Origin: Patescibacteria group bacterium
GTDB taxonomy: Bacteria; Patescibacteriota; Patescibacteriia; UBA2591; UBA6264
Length of the DNA stretch: 32,000 nucleotides
Reading direction: 5' to 3'
NCBI GenBank assembly: GCA_028713575.1
Contig: JAQTOB010000002.1
Span: 30,001 to 62,000 of the forward strand
This document shows, one piece after another, positions 10,177 through 28,447 of this stretch (its first letter is position 1; every line of letters starts with the position of its first letter). Below the pieces are notes generated by a model, which was not told where the DNA came from, ran no database searches, and saw only the letters and a list, made by a program, of their open reading frames with translations. Position numbers and translations under genes: made by a program.

Positions 10177-11754
10177 TTATTTTAATTTTTTAATCAGGTA
10201 AGTATTTTTGAGACGATAGCCGAGACGGCGGTAGTATTGGCGCACACCGATGCCGGAGATGACCGCCATTTTTTTATACCCTTGTTTTTTGGCGATTTTT
10301 TCCGCCTCAATCATTAACTTTTTTCCAAAACCCAAATGCTGAATCGCTTTTTTATTTTTTTTATTTACTTCTACTGATTGACCATAAGTGTGCAACTCTC
10401 TGATTAAAGCGGTATTTTTTAAAACCGGAAAAATTTGGTCGCTGTTTTTTGATAAACGTAAACGACAAAAGGCAATCAATTTACTCTCTTTCTTGTTTTC
10501 AAATGATAAGAAAATTTCTTTCCCTTCTGAAGCGACATATTCTCGTCTAATTAATTTAAAACTTGAAATTTTAAATTTTAAATCTTTTATTTCCCGACAA
10601 CGAATACATTGACAGGGCTTTTTCAATTCTTTCATTTTTTTCTGGACAAATTCCCTAAGATTTGATATTTTACTGCCACCCTGTATTTGCCAAGCCGGGA
10701 TATCACGAATTAAGCGATTAATTCGCGTGTAAGGAGGAACAATTAATTTAATTTTTATTAAAAGATTGATTAATTGTTGGTCAGAATATGGTTTATATTT
10801 TTCTTTTTTCCAAAGTTGATATAGAAAAGACCCTTTGGTGACCACGCAAGGATAAATTTTAAGCATGTCCGGATGAAAATTTGAATTAGTAAAAACTTTT
10901 TTAAATTTTTTGAAATCATTTTGCAATGAAGAGCCGTAAAGACCGGGCATTAAATGATAACATATTTTAAACCCTGCGTTTTTCAGTAATTTTGTTGCCG
11001 CAATAATTTCTTCAATCCCGTGTCCTCTTTTGTTTTTTTTCAAGATTTTGTCGTCAATAATTTGAACCCCCAATTCAACTCGGGTACACCCAAGTTTTCT
11101 CATTCTTTTAATTTCTTTTAATGTTATATAATCAGGCCGAGTTTCTAAAGTAAGGCCAATTATTCGGTGTTTGGCTTTTTCATTTATTTTTTGTGCTGTT
11201 TCCAGGTTTTTACTGATTAATCCATTGGCCGCGTCAAAACATTTTTTAATAAACCAGGTTTGGTATTTCGGGGGCAAATAAGACCAAGTACCGCCAATGA
11301 CAATCAATTCTATTTTATCAACCGGATGACCGCCTCTTTTTAGCATCTCAATTCTTTTTTTTACTTGAAGAAAAGGATTATATTTTAATGTTTTCGCCCT
11401 TTCTACCGCCGGTTCTCCGGATAAATAACTTTTAGGAATGCCTTTTTCTAAAGGGCAGTAAAGGCAATGCCCGGGACAGGGCCAAGGTTTGGTTAAAACC
11501 GCGACCACGGCCACGCCGGATAAAGAACGAATGGGTCTTTTTTTTAGTATTTTTTCTAAAAATTCATTGTTTTTTATTTTTTTGTTTTTTTTCAATTTTT
11601 GATAAAAACTTAAAATATCAACATTGCTTGGCGGGTCAATTTTATATTTAGCGCAAAATTTTTGTTTTTCTTTTATTAAATCGTCAAAAGAATTAATTTT
11701 TTTCAAAATTAATTTTTTAATTAAGAGAAACATTGATTTTTCTTTACAATTCAT
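10177..11754 (-). CDS. elp3: Elp3-type tRNA uridine(34) modification enzyme (radical SAM + GNAT acetyltransferase)
   Basis: VAVLTKPWPCPGHCLYCP radical-SAM cluster region, DKIELIVIGGTW. C-terminal GNAT (QHLGFGKKLM...GVRQYYRRLGY). Collinear with archaeal/eukaryotic Elp3. Confidence 0.85.
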   Translation of the reverse strand: MNCKEKSMFLLIKKLILKKINSFDDLIKEKQKFCAKYKIDPPSNVDILSFYQKLKKNKKIKNNEFLEKILKKRPIRSLSGVAVVAVLTKPWPCPGHCLYCPLEKGIPKSYLSGEPAVERAKTLKYNPFLQVKKRIEMLKRGGHPVDKIELIVIGGTWSYLPPKYQTWFIKKCFDAANGLISKNLETAQKINEKAKHRIIGLTLETRPDYITLKEIKRMRKLGCTRVELGVQIIDDKILKKNKRGHGIEEIIAATKLLKNAGFKICYHLMPGLYGSSLQNDFKKFKKVFTNSNFHPDMLKIYPCVVTKGSFLYQLWKKEKYKPYSDQQLINLLIKIKLIVPPYTRINRLIRDIPAWQIQGGSKISNLREFVQKKMKELKKPCQCIRCREIKDLKFKISSFKLIRREYVASEGKEIFLSFENKKESKLIAFCRLRLSKNSDQIFPVLKNTALIRELHTYGQSVEVNKKNKKAIQHLGFGKKLMIEAEKIAKKQGYKKMAVISGIGVRQYYRRLGYRLKNTYLIKKLK

Positions 11755-11829
11755 TATTAAATGATAACATTTTATTTAAAAATCAAAAGACCATGTTGTC
11801 TTGTCATAAAATTCTGTTATTATTAGCCC

Positions 11830-12519
11830 ATGAGACAAAAAAATGTTCAAATGGTTTTAGAAGATAATAAAAATAATTGGGATGAAATAGCCGATAAATT
11901 TTCCCAAACCCGTCATCATCTTTGGTTTGAATTTGCAGATTTTAAGGATTATATTAAAAAAGGGGACAAGGTTCTGGATTTAGGCTGCGGCAACGGCCGA
12001 TTAATTGAATTATTTGATAAAGATATTGATTATTTAGGCGTTGACCAGTCGCAAAAATTGATTGAAGCGGCAAAAAAGAGATTTCCTTCGGGTAAATTTT
12101 TTGTCGCCGACGCCCTTAATTTGCCGTTTAAAAAAAAATTTGATGTTATTTTTTCTATTGCTTTTTTTCACCATATTCCTTCCCAAGATTTACGCTTAAA
12201 AATTTTAAAAGATTGTTATAGTTTTTTAGCACCAAAAGGAGTTTTTATTTGTTTAGTTTGGAACCTTTTTCAGCCGCGGTTAATTTGGAAATACAATCTT
12301 GGTAAAATCATTTTTGGTTTTAAAAATGTTTTAATTCCTTTTAAAATCAAAGAGCAAAAAATAAAAAGATATTATTACGCTTTTACTAAAGGAGAATTAA
12401 AAAAATCTTTTAAGAAAACCGGTTTTAAAATTATAAAATGTTATTATGTTAGAAAGGGTCGGTTGGCCAGTCGGTTGAACGGATATAATTTAATTTTAAT
12501 CGCCAAAAAAGATGATTAA
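11830..12519 (+). CDS. Class I SAM-dependent methyltransferase, Trm9/ALKBH8-MTase-like
   Basis: EIADKFSQTRHHLW, LDLGCGNGR, VADALNLPFKKKFDVIFSIAFFHH. These line up with yeast Trm9 motifs EIAPHFSQTRYKPW, DVGCGNGK and VADGLNLP...FDFAISIAVVHH (from memory). Confidence 0.6.
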   Translation: MRQKNVQMVLEDNKNNWDEIADKFSQTRHHLWFEFADFKDYIKKGDKVLDLGCGNGRLIELFDKDIDYLGVDQSQKLIEAAKKRFPSGKFFVADALNLPFKKKFDVIFSIAFFHHIPSQDLRLKILKDCYSFLAPKGVFICLVWNLFQPRLIWKYNLGKIIFGFKNVLIPFKIKEQKIKRYYYAFTKGELKKSFKKTGFKIIKCYYVRKGRLASRLNGYNLILIAKKDD

Positions 12520-13867
12520 AAATAATATTTTTAAAGCTTATGACATTAGGGGAGTTTATCCCGCGGAGATTAATGAGGAAGTCGCTTTTAAAGTTGGCGT
12601 TTCTTTAGCTAAATTCTTAAGAAAGAAGTTGAAAAAAAATAATCTTCGGATTGTGGTCGGCCGTGATTGCCGCTTGTCTTCACCCTCCCTTTTTCAGGCA
12701 CTCTGTCAAGGAATATTTAAGGAAAAAGCAACAGTAATTGATATTGGTTTAGTTTCCACCGACACCCTTTATTTTGCTCTCAGTTATTTTAAATATGACG
12801 GCGGCGCAATGATTACCGCTTCACATAATCCCAGAGAATACAATGGTTTTAAAATGCAGATACGCGGCCAGAAATTTATTTATCAAGAATGGGGAATGGA
12901 GGAAATAAAGAGATTAGTTAATAAAACAAAAATATCAGAAAAAGAAATAAAAGGAAAAATTATTAAAAAAAATGTTATTCCCTTTTACGTTAAACACATT
13001 TTGAAATTAATTGACCTCAAAAATATAAAAAAATTAAAAGTTGTGGTTGATGCCGGCAATGGTATGGGCGGCCGAAACATCAAAGAGATTGCAAAAAAAA
13101 TACCAATTACCTTATTTCCTTTATATTTTGAACCAGACGGTAATTTTTCTTCTCGTCATCCCGATCCAATAATTAAAAAAAATCTTAAGGACTGCCAAAA
13201 AATGGTGATTAAAAGAAAGGCTAATTTTGGTTTGGCCTTTGATGCCGACGCTGACCGGACAATTTTTTTTGACGAACGCGGAGAAATTATTAGAGGCGAT
13301 ATGATTATTGCTTTATTCTCTCAATATTTTTTGAAAAAATATCCCGGAGCGAAAATTGTTTATAATTTAATCTGTTCTCGGGCAGTAGAAGAAATTATTA
13401 AAGAAGCCGGTGGTTATCCGCTTAAAGTCAGGACAGGCCATGTTTTTATAAAGGAAAAAATGTTAAAGAAGAAAGCCGTCTTCGGCGGCGAGAAATCAGG
13501 CCATTTATTCTTTCCTGATGTTTTTTATTCTGAATGCGGCGGCCTAGTTTTTTTGATCATGATTAAGATTCTTTCCGAAACAGGGAAAACTCTTTCTGAA
13601 TTAATAAAACCATTTAATAGATATTATCAAATTAATATTAATTTAAAAATAAAAAATAAAGAAAAAATAATTAAAAAATTAAAGAGTTTTTATCAAAAAG
13701 AAAAAAGGAATCAAGTTGACGGCTTAACCATAAAATCAAATGATTGGTGGTTTAATGTAAGGCCCTCCAATACTGAACCATGTTTAAGATTTGTTATTGA
13801 GGCAAAAAATAAAAAAATTGCTCAAAAAGAGTTTAAGCAGATAAAAGAAATCGTTAAAAAAGTTTAA
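12512..13867 (+). CDS. Phosphomannomutase/phosphoglucomutase-family phosphohexomutase
   Basis: Active-site ITASHNPREYNGFK, metal loop FDADADR, sugar loop GGEKSGH; 8-nt overlap with the upstream methyltransferase gene. Confidence 0.8.
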   Translation: MIKNNIFKAYDIRGVYPAEINEEVAFKVGVSLAKFLRKKLKKNNLRIVVGRDCRLSSPSLFQALCQGIFKEKATVIDIGLVSTDTLYFALSYFKYDGGAMITASHNPREYNGFKMQIRGQKFIYQEWGMEEIKRLVNKTKISEKEIKGKIIKKNVIPFYVKHILKLIDLKNIKKLKVVVDAGNGMGGRNIKEIAKKIPITLFPLYFEPDGNFSSRHPDPIIKKNLKDCQKMVIKRKANFGLAFDADADRTIFFDERGEIIRGDMIIALFSQYFLKKYPGAKIVYNLICSRAVEEIIKEAGGYPLKVRTGHVFIKEKMLKKKAVFGGEKSGHLFFPDVFYSECGGLVFLIMIKILSETGKTLSELIKPFNRYYQININLKIKNKEKIIKKLKSFYQKEKRNQVDGLTIKSNDWWFNVRPSNTEPCLRFVIEAKNKKIAQKEFKQIKEIVKKV

Positions 13868-13875
13868 CTTTAAGA

Positions 13876-14856
13876 TTAGGATAGGCCCATGTTTTTTTTA
13901 ACTTCTCTCATGGTTTGAGAAGCGATTTCCTTGGCTCGTTTGGCTCCTTCAAGGAGCGTTTTTTTTATTTCCTTTTCTTTTAATTTTTTTCTTCTTTCTT
14001 GAATCGGTTTTAGCTCCTTAAATATATTTTCAGCTAAAAGTTTTTTACATTCCAGGCAGCCGATTTTAGCCTGAGTGCACCCTTCCACCACGTAATCCAA
14101 ATCTTTTTTATCAGAAACCAATTGATGGAGGGTATAAAGATTGCATTTCTCCGGCGTGCCGGGGTCGGTTTTTCTTTTTCTGGCCGGGTCGGTCATTGCC
14201 GTGGACAATTTGCGGTAGATCGTTTCCTTTGAGTCGGATAAGGCGATGTAGCTTTCCGGGCCGTATGATTTGCTCATTTTTTTGGTTGGGTCAGTCAAAC
14301 TCATTAATCGAGACCCCTTTGTTAAGAGCGATTTTGGTGAAGGGAATGTTTCACCGAATTTTTTATTAAAACATCTAGCGATTTCTCTAGTTAATTCCAC
14401 ATGTTGTCGTTGGTCGTCTCCAACTGGCACGACTTGGGCTTTATAAAGAAGAATGTCAGCCGCCATCAGGACCGGATAATTAAAGAGTCCTGCATTAACA
14501 TTTTCAGTGTTTTGTTTTGACTTTTCTTTAAACTGAGTCATTCTTTTTAAATCGCCGAGCGAGGTGATGGTGCTTAATATCCAGGCCAATTCAGTATGCT
14601 CGGCCACGGCTGACTGGACGAAGATGATTGATTTTTTCGGGTCAAGCCCGCAGGCCAAATAATCCCCGGCTAAATCCAGAATCCTTTGTGGCATTTTTTT
14701 TGGTTCATAGGAAATAGTAATGGCGTGATAATCAACAATACAAAATAAACCGGAATACTCTTCTTGCAGTTTAATCCAGTTTTTAATGGCCCCAAAATAA
14801 TTGCCGATATGGAGCAGTCCGGTTGGTTGAATGCCGCTGAAAAGTCTCTTTTTCAT
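13876..14856 (-). CDS. trpS: Tryptophan--tRNA ligase
   Basis: SGIQPTG..HIGNY (HIGH) and KMSKS motifs; 326 aa. Confidence 0.9.
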   Translation of the reverse strand: MKKRLFSGIQPTGLLHIGNYFGAIKNWIKLQEEYSGLFCIVDYHAITISYEPKKMPQRILDLAGDYLACGLDPKKSIIFVQSAVAEHTELAWILSTITSLGDLKRMTQFKEKSKQNTENVNAGLFNYPVLMAADILLYKAQVVPVGDDQRQHVELTREIARCFNKKFGETFPSPKSLLTKGSRLMSLTDPTKKMSKSYGPESYIALSDSKETIYRKLSTAMTDPARKRKTDPGTPEKCNLYTLHQLVSDKKDLDYVVEGCTQAKIGCLECKKLLAENIFKELKPIQERRKKLKEKEIKKTLLEGAKRAKEIASQTMREVKKNMGLS

Positions 14857-20112: not shown

Positions 20113-22662
20113 ATGGGGTTAGATATTTATTCAAATATTTTGTATTGGCGCGAGCGAGGATTTTTTAATCTTAAATTTTGGCTCCCTTTTTTTGTTTTAA
20201 TATTATTTTTAATTTTATTCTTCTTTTTAAAAAAATATTTAAGAAGGTCGGCTCAATATAAGTTTTCTTTTCAGCGCGCCATTCTTTTAGTCACGGTGCC
20301 TAAGATAAAAATGGATAAAGAAGAAAAAGAGAAAACCCCCAAAGAAATGTTGCAACCAATAGAAAATTTTTTTGATAACATTGGCGGATTAAAAGCACAA
20401 AAAGGATTTAAAACTTGGTTTTTAGGCCGTTCAGACCATTTTTCTTTTGAAATACTTTCAGACAAGCAGGGTATTATTTCTTTTTATGTGGTCGTGCCGC
20501 GAAATTTGCAAACGTTTTTTGAACAACAAGTTCACGCGCAATATCCAGCGGCGCAAATAGAAGAAGTAGATGACTATAATGTTTTTTTACCCCACGGAGA
20601 AGTTGTTTGCGCCAGTCTTACCTTAAGAACTTATTCCATGTTCCCAATTAAAACCTATAATAAGACAGAAACTGATCCTTTAAATGCCATTACTAATTCT
20701 TTGAGCCGAATTGCGGAGGAAGATTCAGCCGCGATTCAAATTATGGTTCGTTCGGCTCAGTCAGGTTGGCGTCAACCCGGCATCAAAGTTGCCCTAGAAA
20801 TGCAACAAGGCAAAAAATTATCAGAGGCGCTAAAAAATATGAGCGGAGGTTTATCAAAATTTTTTAGTTTTTTAACCGATTTTATTTTTCCCAAATCGCA
20901 AAAAAAACAAGATAAAGAATTAGATAAGCCGCATCAACTTTCACCCATGGAACAAGAAGTCGTTAAGACCATTGAAGAAAAGGCGAGCAAGGCCGGAATG
21001 GATGTAAATATTAGAATTGTGGTTTCTGCCCGCGATAAAGGATTGGCTGAAAGCTATTTAGATAACATTGTTAATGCTTTTGCCCAATATACGGGTTATG
21101 AATACGGCAATGGATTTAAAAAAGCAAAAATGAATAAAAACGAGATTATTAGGAATTTTATCTACCGGAATTTTAATGAGAATATAAGTTTTGTTTTAAA
21201 CACAGAAGAAATGGCCAGTATTTATCATTTTCCATTGCCGACAACAGAAACGCCAAATATTCGTTGGTTAATGGCGAAAAAAGCGCCGGCGCCGATTAAC
21301 ATTCCGCACGAAGGCTTGTTTTTAGGTTACAATATCTATCGCGGTCAAAAGACAGCCATTAAAATTAAAAGAGAGGACCGTCGTCGACATATGTATGTTA
21401 TTGGTATGACCGGTACAGGCAAATCTTGGTTTGCCGAAGGCTTGGCTATGCAAGATATTGCCAATGGCGAGGGTATCTGCTTTATTGACCCGCATGGAGA
21501 CGCTATTGGTCATATTTTAGAAAGAATTCCCAAGAATAGAGCCGAAGACGTAATTCTTTTTGACCCGGGCGACTTAACTCGGCCATTAGGATTGAATATG
21601 TTAGAATATGATTTTTCAGAACAAAAAACTTTTGTCATTAATGAAATCATGAATATTTTTGACAAGCTTTACGATTTGCGCGCAACCGGTGGTCCGATTT
21701 TTGAACAATATTTTAAAAACGCTTGTCATTTGGTTATGGATGATATAGCTTCAGGTTCTACTTTATTGGAAATTCCTAAAGTTTTAGCTGATGATGAATT
21801 TAGAAGATATAAGCTTTCCAAATGCAAAACCTTAATGGTTAAAGAATTTTGGGAAAAACAAGCTTTAAAGGCGGGGGGTGAAGCTTCTTTACAAAATATG
21901 GTTCCTTATATTACTAGTAAATTGACACCGTTTTTGACTAATGAATTTATGCAACCTATTATTTCCCAGCAAAAAAGCAGTTTGAATTTTAGAGAGGCCA
22001 TGGATAATAAAAAAATAATTTTAGCTAAATTATCTAAAGGTAAAATTGGTGATACCAATGCCTATTTGTTGGGAATGATTATTGTTGGCAAGATTTTAAT
22101 GTCTGCTTTGAGTCGTGGAGATATGCCGGAAGAAAAAAGAAATGATTTTTATTTATACATTGATGAATTTCAAAACTTTTTAACCGAAAGTATGCAGGTC
22201 ATTTTATCCGAAGCGAGAAAATACCGTTTATGTTTGAATATTATTCACCAGTACATCGGCCAGTTGGTTAAAAATAGTGATACTAAATTTAAGGACTCCA
22301 TTTTTGGCAACGTGGGGACAAAAATAGCCTTTCGTATCGGCGTGGACGATGCTGAAGATTTGACTAAAGAATTTGCCCCGGTTTTTAATGAATACGACTT
22401 TTTAAATATGCCTCAATATAGCGCTTTTGTAAAACTTTTGATTGACAATGCCAATCCGCCGGGTTTTAATATTTCTACGGTTCCTTTTGACCAAATCCCC
22501 GGAGTGCCACCGGCTAATCCGGAAATCGCAAAAATTATTAAGGAATTATCTCAATTAAAATACGGCAAAACTTTACCCATGATTGAACGGGAAATAAGTC
22601 AAAGAAGTCAAATTATTAATCAATTAAAGCAAACAACAGATGGTAATTTATCGCAAATATAG
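20113..22662 (+). CDS. Membrane-anchored P-loop ATPase, type IV secretion coupling-protein-like (TraD/VirD4/TrwB superfamily)
   Basis: N-terminal TM helix, Walker A GMTGTGKS, DPHGD, Walker B-like LYIDEFQNF, RKYRLCLNIIHQYIGQL block as in TraG/TraD C-terminal ATPase domains. Confidence 0.7.
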   Translation: MGLDIYSNILYWRERGFFNLKFWLPFFVLILFLILFFFLKKYLRRSAQYKFSFQRAILLVTVPKIKMDKEEKEKTPKEMLQPIENFFDNIGGLKAQKGFKTWFLGRSDHFSFEILSDKQGIISFYVVVPRNLQTFFEQQVHAQYPAAQIEEVDDYNVFLPHGEVVCASLTLRTYSMFPIKTYNKTETDPLNAITNSLSRIAEEDSAAIQIMVRSAQSGWRQPGIKVALEMQQGKKLSEALKNMSGGLSKFFSFLTDFIFPKSQKKQDKELDKPHQLSPMEQEVVKTIEEKASKAGMDVNIRIVVSARDKGLAESYLDNIVNAFAQYTGYEYGNGFKKAKMNKNEIIRNFIYRNFNENISFVLNTEEMASIYHFPLPTTETPNIRWLMAKKAPAPINIPHEGLFLGYNIYRGQKTAIKIKREDRRRHMYVIGMTGTGKSWFAEGLAMQDIANGEGICFIDPHGDAIGHILERIPKNRAEDVILFDPGDLTRPLGLNMLEYDFSEQKTFVINEIMNIFDKLYDLRATGGPIFEQYFKNACHLVMDDIASGSTLLEIPKVLADDEFRRYKLSKCKTLMVKEFWEKQALKAGGEASLQNMVPYITSKLTPFLTNEFMQPIISQQKSSLNFREAMDNKKIILAKLSKGKIGDTNAYLLGMIIVGKILMSALSRGDMPEEKRNDFYLYIDEFQNFLTESMQVILSEARKYRLCLNIIHQYIGQLVKNSDTKFKDSIFGNVGTKIAFRIGVDDAEDLTKEFAPVFNEYDFLNMPQYSAFVKLLIDNANPPGFNISTVPFDQIPGVPPANPEIAKIIKELSQLKYGKTLPMIEREISQRSQIINQLKQTTDGNLSQI

Positions 22663-25062: not shown

Positions 25063-25095
25063 ATGCCGGGTCGTCTAACTTGCCCCGCCAATTTT

Positions 25096-25431
25096 ATGTC
25101 ATATCTTTATATTTTAAAAAATAGATTAGGCAGGCATTATATCGGGATTACTAAATTAGAACCAAGAGAAAGATTAAAACGACATAATCAAGGAGACGTT
25201 TATTCAACAAAATCCGGGAGGTCCTGGAAAATAATTTGTCTAGAAAAATTTGAAACTCTTAAAGAAGCAAGAGAAATGGAAAAAATGATAAAGAGATGGA
25301 AAGGCGGAAATGCATTTAAAAAGTTTCTCTGCAAAACTGCCGGGTCGTCTAATGGCAGGACAACGGATTCTGGCTCCGTTTATCTTGGTTCGAATCCAAG
25401 CCCGGCAGTTTTGCAGAAAAACAAGATATAA
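25096..25431 (+). CDS. GIY-YIG nuclease-family protein (small UPF0213/YhbQ-like type); 3' end uncertain
   Basis: MSYLYILKN..GRHYIGIT..RLKRHNQG...EAREMEKMIKRWK. No in-frame stop before the tRNA, so the last ~30 codons are translated tRNA sequence. Confidence 0.7.
   Translation: MSYLYILKNRLGRHYIGITKLEPRERLKRHNQGDVYSTKSGRSWKIICLEKFETLKEAREMEKMIKRWKGGNAFKKFLCKTAGSSNGRTTDSGSVYLGSNPSPAVLQKNKI
25338..25408 (+). tRNA. tRNA-Gln(CTG)
   Basis: Hand-folded: acceptor TGCCGGG/CCCGGCA (U1-A72), D-arm GTCT-AATGGCA-GGAC, anticodon stem ACGGA/TCCGT with loop TTCTGGC, T-arm CTTGG-TTCGAAT-CCAAG, discriminator G. Confidence 0.9.
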
Positions 25432-25754
25432 ATTTGGCGGGGTGAACAGGACAACGGATTCTGGCTTCGTTTATCTTGGTTCGACTTGTCCCGTTAAAGG
25501 CGGGAATCCAATCTTGGCAGCCATCCTTCGCCAAGGCTACGAAATGGCTAAAACTATGTTGTTGTATTTGTTGCTTTGAATTTTAGGTAGTCCGGAACTT
25601 TAGTGAAGGATACCAAGCCCGGCAGTTTTTTATTGCTTCCGTTCCTCAAAACCTTCAGCCCGCTATATAAATAGCGACGAAGACACTGATGCTGAGGGAA
25701 GCGCCGACGAACGAGAGTGAAGAGGGACTGAGCTTAACAGAGCGAATGTAATTA

Positions 25755-25968
25755 ACTTAAGAAAGGGGTCTGTCCCCAAAAAATGCCTTTCTAAAATCCT
25801 TATCAGTGTTGGATTTTAAGACGATTTTTAAAAAATAGTCGAATATCGACTACTTTAGAAAAATTAAATTCACCAAAATGGGACCGCCTTTGGAAAATGG
25901 CATACAGGGGCCGGACATAGATTTTTTAAAAGTCAGACCCCTTAAAGGGAAGATTGAGGAGGTTTAAC
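25755..25968 (+). repeat. 214-bp structured direct repeat, copy 1
   Basis: Aligns without gaps to 27685-27898 (offset 1930 bp) with 8 differences, all transitions. Confidence 0.9.
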
Positions 25969-26144
25969 ATCTGATGTGATGGTGAGTACCTACGAGGTGA
26001 GACCTCGTAGGGGTGATGAAAAATTCCCGTTTTTGTTTTTTGGCCCAATTTCGCCTCTATCTTTTACAGGGTCGCCACTTTTTATTGAGGTATATAAAAA
26101 TACGAAATTATTTAAATAATTTGCGGATTAAAAAATTTAATTTT

Positions 26145-26477
26145 ATGAAAACAATCAAATGGTTTGCTCGAATAATCGCATTATGTATTCTGGTGTTCGC
26201 TTTGCCGTTTTATTTTGGCTACGGTAATCCATTGCCGTTTGCTAATCCGAATTATTCTTTGTGGGAGAATGTTGCACTATCTATGATGCCACTGGTTTTT
26301 ATCGGTTTAGCCTTGGGCTGGAAGTATCCAAAAATCGCAGGCTGGCTTATTATTAGTGCAATTGCAATTGGTTTTATCGTTGGACTTTTAACAGAAGCAA
26401 ACCTCAGTATCAATCTGGCAGTTCCTATCATTCCAGGAATTTTGTATTTAATAGATGGGTATAAAAAAAATGAATAA
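26145..26477 (+). CDS. Small integral membrane protein (110 aa, 3-4 TM)
   Basis: The hydrophobic ORF core starts at MKTIKWFARIIAL (ATG 26145). The upstream part of the ORF, from 26013, is AT-rich and basic, so it is probably not coding. Confidence 0.55.
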   Translation: MKTIKWFARIIALCILVFALPFYFGYGNPLPFANPNYSLWENVALSMMPLVFIGLALGWKYPKIAGWLIISAIAIGFIVGLLTEANLSINLAVPIIPGILYLIDGYKKNE

Positions 26478-26646
26478 ATATATTAAGATAATACTTTCTA
26501 TTCTGGCGGTATTATTCGGGTTATTTTTAATTGTATTTGGCGGATACGATGACAGTCCTGGAGCACAAGGACTTGGACTTATATTAGTTATTACTACAGT
26601 CATTATCGTAATTAGAAGCAGAAAGAAAAACAACAATCCACTATGA
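26455..26646 (+). CDS. Small membrane protein (2 TM; alternative start 26470)
   Basis: Two hydrophobic helices separated by GGYDDSPGAQG; overlaps the neighbouring genes at both ends (operon-like). Confidence 0.4.
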   Translation: MGIKKMNKYIKIILSILAVLFGLFLIVFGGYDDSPGAQGLGLILVITTVIIVIRSRKKNNNPL

Positions 26647-27659
26647 TTTTTGAGCATTCATCAAAAAACAAAAAGGTATTATTGTTTATTTTTATAACTA
26701 TTTTAATGATAGGTGTTTTTTTGTCTTTATATTCGTCAGTCATCTTTCAAGAAGGCAATCCTTGGCCACAAATCAAAGGAATGGTTCAATTAAAATTTGG
26801 CGATAGTGATATTGTGAAGTTGTCGGGTTCAGATAATAAATTTATGACCGAAAGTAAAAACGGGACCATGATACATAATTTCATGAAAACCAAAGGATAC
26901 GAATTTACCGAGCAAATGGGTTCAGGTTACTTCTTCAAATCTTCTACAGGACAAAGCGCCATTGCCACTCATAAATATTACACTCGTTATTATTCGCTTT
27001 GGACTATTACCGAAAATAACAATTTCCAAACTGACAACGATCTGTGGGCGATGACTACCGATAACAACGGAGCAACCTTTCAATATCCAAAAGAGTTATT
27101 GGCCAAATATATTAGTATTGTAGAGTGGCCGCCGACAGTTAAGGTGGAATTTGGCAGTTTCTCTTGCGTTGAGACGCCACAAGAAAAAAGCAGTATGCTT
27201 GAAATAACCAGTCAGAGATTGGTTGATGATAGAATTTACTGCGTTAATGTTAAAAATGAGGGAGCGGCGGGAAGTGTTTATTCTTCCTATGTTTATACGA
27301 CTCCCAGGAGAGGAAAACTGGTTTCGGTTAGCTTTGTCTTGCGCTATACGAATTGTGCCAATTATGACGAGGAGCAGAGTCAGGCCTGTACAAGCGAGCG
27401 CGAGGCTTTTGATTTTGATGCGACAGTGGATCGCATAGTCCAGACTGTTAAATGGGATTCAGCTTTAAGTGAAGACACCTTATTTAATCAAATAGCTAAA
27501 TGTTTGGTATCAAGTCGGTCGGAAGATCAGGAAAAATGCGATGAATTTTTGAAACAGATTAGCGATTTTGATTCCTGCGTAATGGCTGGTTTCTCCATAA
27601 TGAAATCAAACCCTCTCCAGTGCGCCACGCCAGACGGCCGAATCTTTATTCAAAAGTGA
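26643..27659 (+). CDS. Signal-anchored extracytoplasmic protein (338 aa), Cys-containing C-terminal module
   Basis: N-terminal TM/signal anchor; visibly higher G+C than surrounding genes. ATGA overlap with the preceding ORF. No family recognised. Confidence 0.55.
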   Translation: MIFEHSSKNKKVLLFIFITILMIGVFLSLYSSVIFQEGNPWPQIKGMVQLKFGDSDIVKLSGSDNKFMTESKNGTMIHNFMKTKGYEFTEQMGSGYFFKSSTGQSAIATHKYYTRYYSLWTITENNNFQTDNDLWAMTTDNNGATFQYPKELLAKYISIVEWPPTVKVEFGSFSCVETPQEKSSMLEITSQRLVDDRIYCVNVKNEGAAGSVYSSYVYTTPRRGKLVSVSFVLRYTNCANYDEEQSQACTSEREAFDFDATVDRIVQTVKWDSALSEDTLFNQIAKCLVSSRSEDQEKCDEFLKQISDFDSCVMAGFSIMKSNPLQCATPDGRIFIQK

Positions 27660-27684
27660 AATAAGTAATTTTTCGGTATAATAG

Positions 27685-27898
27685 ACTCAAGAAAGGGGTC
27701 TGTCCCCAAAAAATGCCCTTCTAGAATCCTTATCAGTGTTGGATTTTAAGACGATTTTTAAAAAATAGTCGAATATTGACTACTTTAGAAAAATTAAATT
27801 CACCAAAATGGGACCGCCTTTGGAAAATGGCATACAGGGGTCGGACATAGATTTTTTAAAAGTCAGACCCCTTAAAGGGAAAATTGGGGAGGTTTGAC
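27685..27898 (+). repeat. 214-bp structured direct repeat, copy 2
   Basis: See copy 1; lies directly upstream of the SRPBCC gene. Confidence 0.9.
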
Positions 27899-27957
27899 CT
27901 CAGTAATATAGGGACGTGACAGGGTTCGGCCCAGCAAATTATTGTAAAATAATATAC

Positions 27958-28404
27958 ATGAACAAAATAACGCTCCATAATCAATGGGTTGTCAAAGCTC
28001 CCATAAATGATGTATTCAGAATAATGACCGACTTTGAAAAATTTCCGAAGAATTTTCCAAAGGTTGCTGAATCAATACAGATTAATAAACGGGAAGGAAA
28101 TTATTTGGGAATGGACGCAACCGTAAAATCATTCGGCAAAAGGTTTCAAGTAAAGATGAAAACTCAAATCCTCCCAGGGAAGGGCTTTATCTCAGATAAT
28201 GACAGTTATCAGTTTGGGACTTCCGGACATGAAGAGCTGCTGCTTTCCGAACACGTTGAAGGAACTTTAATTGACTATACCTATCAGGTCACCATTCATA
28301 AAAAATGGCTGAGTATAATCGCTGTACCTCTGCTGCGCTGGTATTCAATGAAATACTGGGAAAAGGCGGTTATTGATCAGCTTAAAAAGACCCTTGAGAA
28401 ATAA
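27958..28404 (+). CDS. SRPBCC-superfamily protein (polyketide cyclase/START-like)
   Basis: About 148 aa, with the pattern I.APINDVFRIMTDFEKFP... typical of SRPBCC N-termini. The ATG at 27958 is preferred over the GTG at 27916. Confidence 0.6.
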   Translation: MNKITLHNQWVVKAPINDVFRIMTDFEKFPKNFPKVAESIQINKREGNYLGMDATVKSFGKRFQVKMKTQILPGKGFISDNDSYQFGTSGHEELLLSEHVEGTLIDYTYQVTIHKKWLSIIAVPLLRWYSMKYWEKAVIDQLKKTLEK

Positions 28405-28447
28405 TTGAAAGTAGGAGTATGCAGGGGTTCAATTCCTACATTTTTTC

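Follow-up and report, generated by a model that had tools for sequence, protein, structure and literature searches.

Patescibacteria (CPR) have tiny genomes, and the way in which they swap accessory genes is poorly understood. Downstream of a tRNA-Gln gene in one such genome, two direct copies of a hairpin-rich sequence (here denoted R) flank a 1.7-kb module of three plus-strand ORFs, raising the question of whether R acts as an RNA or marks, at the DNA level, a site where genes are gained and lost. A first-pass annotation of the window, the whole stretch of 32,000 nucleotides analysed here, had proposed an uncharacterised cis-regulatory or mobile-element RNA of about 180 nt. The window is a low-GC, Paceibacteria-like segment carrying mraZ-rsmH-ftsL-PBP-murF, several aminoacyl-tRNA synthetases and three tRNAs; the protein matches bear the names Patescibacteria or Paceibacterota. 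The nearest homologue of its TyrRS is 76% identical at the amino acid level, indicating that the species has no close sequenced relative.

Repeat search and alignment detected a single long direct repeat in the window, in agreement with the annotation: two copies of 223 nt, R1 and R2, 95% identical and spaced 1,930 nt from start to start (Table 1). R lies 340 nt downstream of tRNA-Gln and is small, AT-rich, non-coding and intergenic. The inverted-repeat word that bounds the core (AAGGGGTCTG/CAGACCCCTT, pairing 10/10, P1 of the annotation) has four exact sites in the window, all of them repeat ends, and the homology between R1 and R2 runs past the inverted repeats by 14 nt on the left and 28 nt on the right. 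The cores differ at four positions, all transitions (T25788C, A25794G, C25847T and C25911T); C25847T is private to the window strain, as R2 of assembly GCA_028711035.1 retains C there. Differences between the copies are rarer in the core (4/181) than at the repeat edges (7/42; Fisher p=0.001), a contrast that suggests constraint on the hairpin-rich part, or gene conversion there. R1 and R2 agree at every base over stretches of 116, 40 and 29 nt. A short direct repeat is found at both edges of each copy and co-varies within it, TTAAC...TTAAC in R1 (25752-25756 / 25964-25968) and TAGAC...TTGAC in R2 (27682-27686 / 27894-27898); it could be chance or a trace of the insertion of the unit. We rejected a coding remnant: one frame has a 42-codon open stretch, whose sole match, to an Fn3-repeat protein, is spurious and which has no Pfam family. 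A 29-aa ORF carries two non-synonymous changes and one synonymous change.

Table 1. Features of the repeat locus, in window coordinates
Feature	Position	Strand	Remarks
tRNA-Gln(CTG)	25337..25409	+	
-10-like hexamer TGTAAT	25747..25752	+	left edge of homology, 12 nt before GGGG; in R2 a perfect TATAAT, 27677-27682
R1, full 223-nt unit	25749..25971	+	repeat search and alignment
Left terminal inverted repeat AAGGGGTCTG	25763..25772	+	R2: 27693-27702
R1 core, 181 nt, bounded by 10-bp inverted repeat	25763..25943	+	
Hairpin P4, extended in the MFE fold (CUAAAAUCC/GGAUUUUAAG)	25790..25821	+	pairing probability 0.94
Central long hairpin, P5 (TAGTCGA-ATA-TCGACTA) with A/T extension GATTTTT...AAAAATT	25823..25865	+	pairing probability 0.96
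40-nt block identical in R1 and R2, containing the hybrid crossover	25912..25951	.	R2 equivalent: 27842-27881
Right terminal inverted repeat CAGACCCCTT	25934..25943	+	R2: 27864-27873
Purine-rich tail AAAGGGAAGATTGAGGAGGTTTAACATC	25944..25971	+	R2: 27874-27901; 4 differences/28 nt
Strain-variable segment between the repeats	25972..27678	+	with one repeat, the 1,930-bp indel unit; missing in L070
Cassette ORF 1, 110 aa, DUF7670 membrane protein	26145..26477	+	Pfam E=2e-13
Cassette ORF 2, 63 aa	26455..26646	+	no family
Cassette ORF 3, 338 aa	26643..27659	+	apparent N-terminal hydrophobic segment (read from translation)
R2, 95% identical to R1	27679..27901	+	repeat search and alignment
R2 core, 181 nt	27693..27873	+	
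SRPBCC-like gene	27958..28404	+	downstream of R2; directly downstream of the single repeat in the sister strain

Other assemblies carrying the locus were found by exact-protein look-up. Both R copies and the cassette are present in GCA_028711035.1 (contigs L069/L071), which is 99.84% identical to the window. The 517-kb JGI contig of a sister strain (L070), 99.3-99.5% identical in both flanks, carries one R copy and no cassette, with the gene order TyrRS-tRNA-Gln followed directly by R and the SRPBCC gene. The single copy is a hybrid: it has the copy-1 left flank and the copy-1 core states at 25788, 25794 and 25911, and is copy 2 from 25952 on, indicating a crossover within the 40-nt identical block. 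In SRR12486999, the Logan contigs L072 and L090 each start exactly 30 nt ahead of the first tail SNP, from where one runs into the cassette and the other into the SRPBCC gene; these starts match the k=31 graph branch expected when both tails are present. A single recombinant genotype has been seen so far. Because the copies bracket a segment missing from a 99.4%-identical sister strain, R marks a junction of gene gain and loss, and these data demonstrate that the 1,930-bp unit has a presence/absence polymorphism mediated by the repeat. The annotation was right in sensing a mobile element, inasmuch as the copies are the junctions of a unit that two strains carry and a third does not. The locus shows, at base resolution, the gain or loss of a three-gene module between near-identical strains via a repeat that is rich in hairpins and lies beside a tRNA gene.

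Neither a recombinase nor a transposase domain turned up in the cassette, among those window ORFs that were scanned or annotated, or over the ~6 kb past the window end that L070 covers. The cassette proteins match no defence family in PADLOC, and in PHROGs they have only weak matches, to families of unknown function. The 338-aa protein belongs to no Pfam family and has many homologues in Patescibacteria, in other contexts and with the repeat absent. A strong 10-bp hairpin, CCTACGAGGT-GAG-ACCTCGTAGG, with TTTTTGTTTTTT ~20 nt further on, is found at 25989-26040, within the cassette-specific spacer of 159 nt that separates R1 from the DUF7670 gene; this spacer has no counterpart in L077 and L078, two Patescibacteria contigs with homologues of the module.

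Partial copies of tRNA-Gln are found 3' of the gene. Positions 20-57 of the tRNA recur at 25447-25484 (97%) and positions 60-73, its 3' end, at 25613-25626, where a T-run comes next; in the sister strain the first partial copy is longer by a 21-nt hairpin (CTGCCTGCGGGAGGCAGGCTC) in its anticodon-loop-like part (L070:9380-9620). The partial copies look like remnants of nested integrations or like an interrupted tRNA, and the tRNA-Gln locus looks like an old integration hot spot. R itself is not a tRNA-targeting integrative att repeat, as it shares nothing with tRNA-Gln and the partial copies lie apart from it. An ORF with a GIY-YIG domain (25063-25431; Pfam E=9e-14) reads through the tRNA-Gln gene. 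In addition, an 849-aa protein encoded at 20113-22662, 3 kb upstream of the locus, has DUF8128, HerA/DUF87 and TraG-D_C (coupling-protein-like) domains. On the other side, the SRPBCC gene region (27932-28405) shows 84-89% DNA identity to genes in non-syntenic Patescibacteria contigs (L074:1485-1959, L075:19-495 and L076:10001-10448). This homology begins ~26 nt before the ATG, at a AATTATTGTAAAATA box, and ends at the stop codon; such similarity could reflect horizontal movement of a single-gene unit or extreme conservation.

The annotation had drawn R as seven helices (P1, P2a, P2b and P3 to P6). All seven are fully complementary, nested and free of conflict, and the four core substitutions are as it described them, both in-helix changes (A25794G and C25847T) producing G.U pairs. 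Its statement that the substitutions respect the helices is true in that none breaks a helix, but this outcome is expected by chance (p about 0.35, our estimate for four transitions with 84/181 bases paired). The Shine-Dalgarno-like tract at the right end is likewise present, as GAGGAGG in copy 1 and GGGGAGG in copy 2, but it is not the ribosome-binding site of any conserved ORF: in R1 the next ATG lies 11 nt past GGAGG and is followed immediately by TGA, and in R2 a TTG 2 nt past GGAGG opens a frame of 5 codons.

The plus strand of R folds with an MFE of -50.8 kcal/mol vs -35.2 +/- 3.8 for shuffled sequences (z = -4.1). The reverse complement reaches -54.0 kcal/mol (z = -3.8) and scores 40 bits against R's own covariance model. 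As both strands fold alike and the reverse complement matches the model of R, the signal is one of inverted symmetry in the DNA and is not strand-specific. The hand fold of the annotation, at -39.5 kcal/mol, is less stable than the MFE structure by 11 kcal/mol. The helices have pairing probabilities of 0.87 for P1, 0.94 for P4, 0.96 for P5, 0.56 for P2b, 0.42 for P6, 0.17 for P2a and 0.001 for P3, the last because longer versions of P4 and P5 outcompete it; P1, P4 and P5 are the only helices predicted to be thermodynamically robust. The available copies comprise only three distinct core sequences, and two-sided pair changes number 0/42 in the hand fold and 0/59 in the RNAalifold structure. Rfam 15, searched at the gathering threshold over the whole window, returned only the three tRNAs. 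At E<=10 over 25600-28000 the sole match within the repeat core was SpF25, at 19.6 bits vs a threshold of 48, and the interval between tRNA-Gln and R gave no match. Distant blastn found no match to R in phages and plasmids, and in this sense the annotation's word uncharacterised holds. No terminator or Shine-Dalgarno sequestration that could serve as an expression platform was found in or after R on the plus strand. Together these data do not establish an RNA function: the copies show no covariation and both strands fold equally well. The observation behind the proposal is real, its support was overstated, and the case for an RNA is weak.

A covariance model was built from the three R copies and gave one match clearly above noise, a 116-nt element on the minus strand of L078 (18999-19114; 26.8 bits vs a noise ceiling of 13.6), a sequence not picked by any DNA pattern. 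The E-values of the model are optimistic, as shown by 23 noise matches at E<=1, and our extrapolation from the empirical tail gives ~4e-4. The L078 element has a ParB-methylase operon on one side and an HTH_17/helicase operon on the other; the surrounding region also contains a large serine recombinase and a diversity-generating retroelement (DGR). The element has a 10-bp closing stem (GGCTCGTCAA/TTGACGAGTC) and keeps a TTTTTAAAA-hairpin-CTTTAGAAAAAYTAAA motif, in which the hairpin sequence differs yet pairs; AYATAG before the 3' stem is common to both elements, and the central hairpin is the best-matched part of R. A -10-like hexamer, which has a background frequency of 0.9-1.8% per position, stands exactly 12 nt before GGGG in all three sequences (TGTAAT in R1, TATAAT in R2 and TATTAT in the L078 element). 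P1 and P5 are retained with changes on both sides, in a candidate that the structure model itself had found, and P2, P3, P4 and P6 are missing. The opposite strand of the L078 element folds slightly better (z -4.0 vs -3.2), Rfam gives no match to the element, and sequence-only alignment of R to the L078 intergenic region is not significant, with 49/500 shuffles scoring as well. We consider the L078 element a lead, a candidate distant relative hinting that the structure itself may have been selected.

R was found in this species only. No further copy is present in the window, in L070 or in L079-L083; about 95 kb of the species was covered, and pattern scans of genome, metagenome and viral collections yielded no additional copy. 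R is not upstream of the SRPBCC homologues (L074-76), nor beside the DUF7670/338-aa homologues (L077, L078 and L091), nor at the paralogue locus of the same genome (L079-83). Since the homologues of the module in L077, L078 and L091 lack R, R is not part of the genes. Searching species-representative genomes for the 10+10-nt inverted-repeat pattern retrieved 68 loci, mostly a multi-copy palindrome of Magnetococcales, together with Burkholderiales and Endomicrobiellum elements; none was accepted as a relative, as blastn and nhmmer detected no internal similarity to R and the 10-mer alone is shared. The inverted repeat of the Magnetococcales family continues outward past the 10-mer, indicating that this family is unrelated to R. 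A JGI metagenome scan with the right-end 20-mer gave one match (L073), merely a short palindrome, and the viral collections, covered by four DNA-pattern scans and one protein scan, yielded nothing beyond a chance coding match (L092). In the Magnetococcales MAGs (PEAO01, PEAN01, JADGCQ01 and JACSDG01; L001-L066), a palindromic repeat of ~200 nt whose inverted ends are long (TTATTAAAAGAAAAAAGGGGTCTGGGGGATTGCCCCCAGGGTTTTGA...) occurs dozens of times per genome and looks like a high-copy MITE-like family. The Endomicrobiellum MAGs carry orthologous AT-rich elements of 166-170 nt with the same 10-nt inverted ends (L034:3518-3683 and L067:3243-3412), which start AAGGGGTCTGTCTAAAAAA and score 20-28 bits against the R model, mostly from the preselected ends.

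The reading we favor, to which we give slightly less than an even chance (about 0.45), is that of a non-coding foldback intergenic repeat, restricted to this lineage, with recombination between its copies adding or removing the cassette. R would consist of a -10-like box, a 181-nt core closed by the 10-bp inverted repeat and filled with internal palindromes, and a purine-rich tail, placed 5' of gene modules and downstream of the putative tRNA-Gln hot spot. Its two direct copies would serve as portable homology, such that recombination between them loops out or takes in the 1,930-bp unit, one repeat plus three genes, with presence/absence variation between co-existing strains as the outcome. 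The exchange is probably not the work of a dedicated recombinase but ordinary homologous (RecA-type) recombination, for which the identical blocks of 116, 40 and 29 nt would suffice. The direction could be either: L070 may have lost the unit by deletion, or the other strains may have acquired it in a Campbell-type or transformation-mediated event. The nested fold would be mainly a by-product of DNA inverted symmetry, not a selected RNA shape. Against this reading, the crossover fell in the 40-nt and not in the 116-nt block, an outcome estimated at ~13% under length-proportional homologous recombination, and the origin of the two copies is left unaccounted for. The better conserved core and the L078 element, with its retained stems and -10-like hexamer, also speak against it; like the position of the crossover, they would fit a promoter with a structured leader RNA and, less well, a folded attachment site.

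A possible, though somewhat unlikely, alternative is that R is a promoter with a structured 5'-leader or intercistronic RNA. Transcription of the plus strand from the left-edge -10 box would yield a ~180-nt multi-helix RNA, closed by P1, that regulates or stabilises the mRNA of the downstream operon (the DUF7670 module in one case, the SRPBCC gene in the other), and recombination would be a side effect. The fixed 12-nt spacing of the hexamer, the start of the R1-R2 homology at this very hexamer and the way in which R1, R2 and the L078 element each face a downstream gene of their own strand all suit such a leader, as do the two-sided changes that spare P1 and P5 in L078, the plus-strand G.U pairs and the better conserved core. 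Moreover, no plus-strand terminator was found between the 338-aa gene and the SRPBCC gene, indicating that R2 is probably transcribed anyway. In its size, closing stem, nested hairpins and position upstream of same-strand genes R resembles riboswitch-type leaders, but it differs from them in having no Rfam match, covariation, terminator or Shine-Dalgarno-sequestering platform and in not being conserved upstream of homologous SRPBCC, DUF7670 or 338-aa genes in other genomes. The real copies give the leader no covariation; the minus strand folds at least as well; no usable start codon follows GGAGG; the next gene lies at variable distances (57, 168 and 175 nt; 175 for R1 and 57 for R2); a conserved promoter-like box that lies outside R serves the SRPBCC gene separately; and the L078 element, which lacks P2, P3, P4 and P6, is linked to R by the model match and not by sequence alignment. 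Present evidence is that of an ordinary repeat-mediated indel, and an RNA role is possible.

The remaining explanations concern how the unit moved, or whether it moved at all. It is unlikely that R is an attC-like folded attachment site, a hairpin recognised by a recombinase encoded elsewhere, with a 1,930-bp circle of three genes and its own R integrating at a resident R by strand exchange close to the hairpin's right end. The topology matches an attC x attC insertion exactly, with resident core joined to cassette-borne tail and cassette-borne core to resident tail; as in integrons, a structured imperfect palindrome, here with its core better conserved than the flanks, stands at the 3' boundary of a promoterless-looking cassette and a hybrid site remains after exchange. 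The crossover at the 3' end of the hairpin, outside the longest identical block, and the adjoining tRNA gene with partial duplications typical of integration hot spots are also in line with it. However, R has the closing stem AAGGGGTCTG/CAGACCCCTT in place of inverted GTTRRRY/RYYYAAC (R''/R') core sites; its RYYYAAC-like edge words (AATTAAC and GTTTAAC in R1, changing to GAC in R2) are direct and not inverted repeats; no IntI or other integrase was found among the scanned or annotated ORFs of the window or in the ~6 kb beyond it; the 181-nt core exceeds the usual attC length of 57-141 nt; and similarity extends 28 nt past the hairpin. With partner sites 95-98% identical over 223 nt homologous recombination is sufficient, and one array position with one cassette is known, no other copies having appeared in the species sequence or the collection scans. 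At longer odds still, R and the L078 element may form a new Patescibacteria family of 120-180 nt (-10 box, closing stem and central hairpin), acting as an attC-like cassette-exchange site or as a promoter-linked structured RNA at the boundaries of mobile modules. Should R turn out to be a folded site dedicated to recombination, or a new class of RNA, it would give a handle on cassette exchange in the phylum. We hold equally improbable that R is a decayed MITE, for example a Tn3-derived TIME, which inserted or was duplicated on both sides of the module and is now immobile. Its perfect 10-bp terminal inverted repeat, its size, within the 150-250 nt range of TIMEs, its AT-rich, non-coding, intergenic nature and the short edge direct repeats in each copy would fit. 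So would the right end read inward, GGGGTCTGAC, which equals the first 10 nt of the Tn3 inverted repeat, a word that is common in vector sequences. TIMEs, however, need inverted repeats of roughly 38 bp (starting GGGG) and 5-bp duplications, and R has neither: its inverted repeat is 10 bp, it is abutted by AAGA and AAAG, and its 5-nt flanks are unequal (AGAAA vs TTAAA). The homology between the copies reaches 14 and 28 nt beyond the inverted repeats, the two copies occupy one locus, the sister strain keeps one copy and offers no empty site, no transposase was found, and the elements of Magnetococcales, Burkholderiales and Endomicrobiellum that end in the same 10-mer share no interior with R. 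Finally, it is very improbable that the cassette-less genotype is an artefact of a repeat collapsed during assembly of the JGI contig. Assemblies do break here, with Logan contigs starting or stopping in R and tRNA-Gln; but the hybrid joins C25911 to A25952, two SNPs 41 nt apart, which makes mis-assembly of L070 unlikely as a mis-join at k<=41 would be needed, and L070 is a distinct strain, 0.5-0.7% divergent and with the extra 21-nt insertion upstream.

Returning to the favored reading of a foldback repeat that recombines, R is best filed as a new, species-restricted example within a known class. The ERIC sequences (IRU) of enterobacteria are non-coding imperfect palindromes, 100-200 nt long, that occupy transcribed intergenic regions, can fold on either strand and have no enzyme of their own. 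R is like them an imperfect palindrome of that size, non-coding, foldable on either strand and without an associated enzyme. In contrast to the tens to hundreds of dispersed ERIC copies per genome, with a conserved consensus, R is present twice, at a single locus of one species, has no sequence in common with ERIC and flanks an indel cassette. R also resembles the Correia elements of Neisseria (CREE/NEMIS), which are small, bounded by inverted repeats and located upstream of genes, and which can carry promoter hexamers and are transcribed into hairpins. The Correia elements differ in occurring in hundreds of copies, with inverted repeats of 26 bp and a TA duplication, vs two copies, 10 bp and no duplication for R.

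The reverse transcriptase (RT) and Avd genes beside the L078 homologue had raised the idea that R1 and R2 are the template and variable repeats of a DGR. This was rejected, since the DGR of L078 has its own pair of repeats; moreover, R1 and R2 differ by T>C, A>G, C>T and C>T, both lie between genes and the window has no RT. The L078 DGR is complete and lies next to the cassette homologue (L078:11681-14051). Its template repeat spans 11681-11818, with bAvd at 11859-11993 (minus strand) and the RT at 12178-13239; the target ORF (13401-14051) contains the variable repeat (13901-14038), which matches the template at 86% identity. Genes for a large serine recombinase, a ParB-methylase and SNF2 lie close by. 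A paralogue of the 338-aa gene in the species of the window also has a strain-variable intergenic region upstream (L079:9690-9990, L080:60-330, L081 and L082). There, a ~140-nt segment has been replaced, and one or three copies of GACCCCAAGTCGATAA stand in tandem behind a GGGGTCAGACCCC palindrome.
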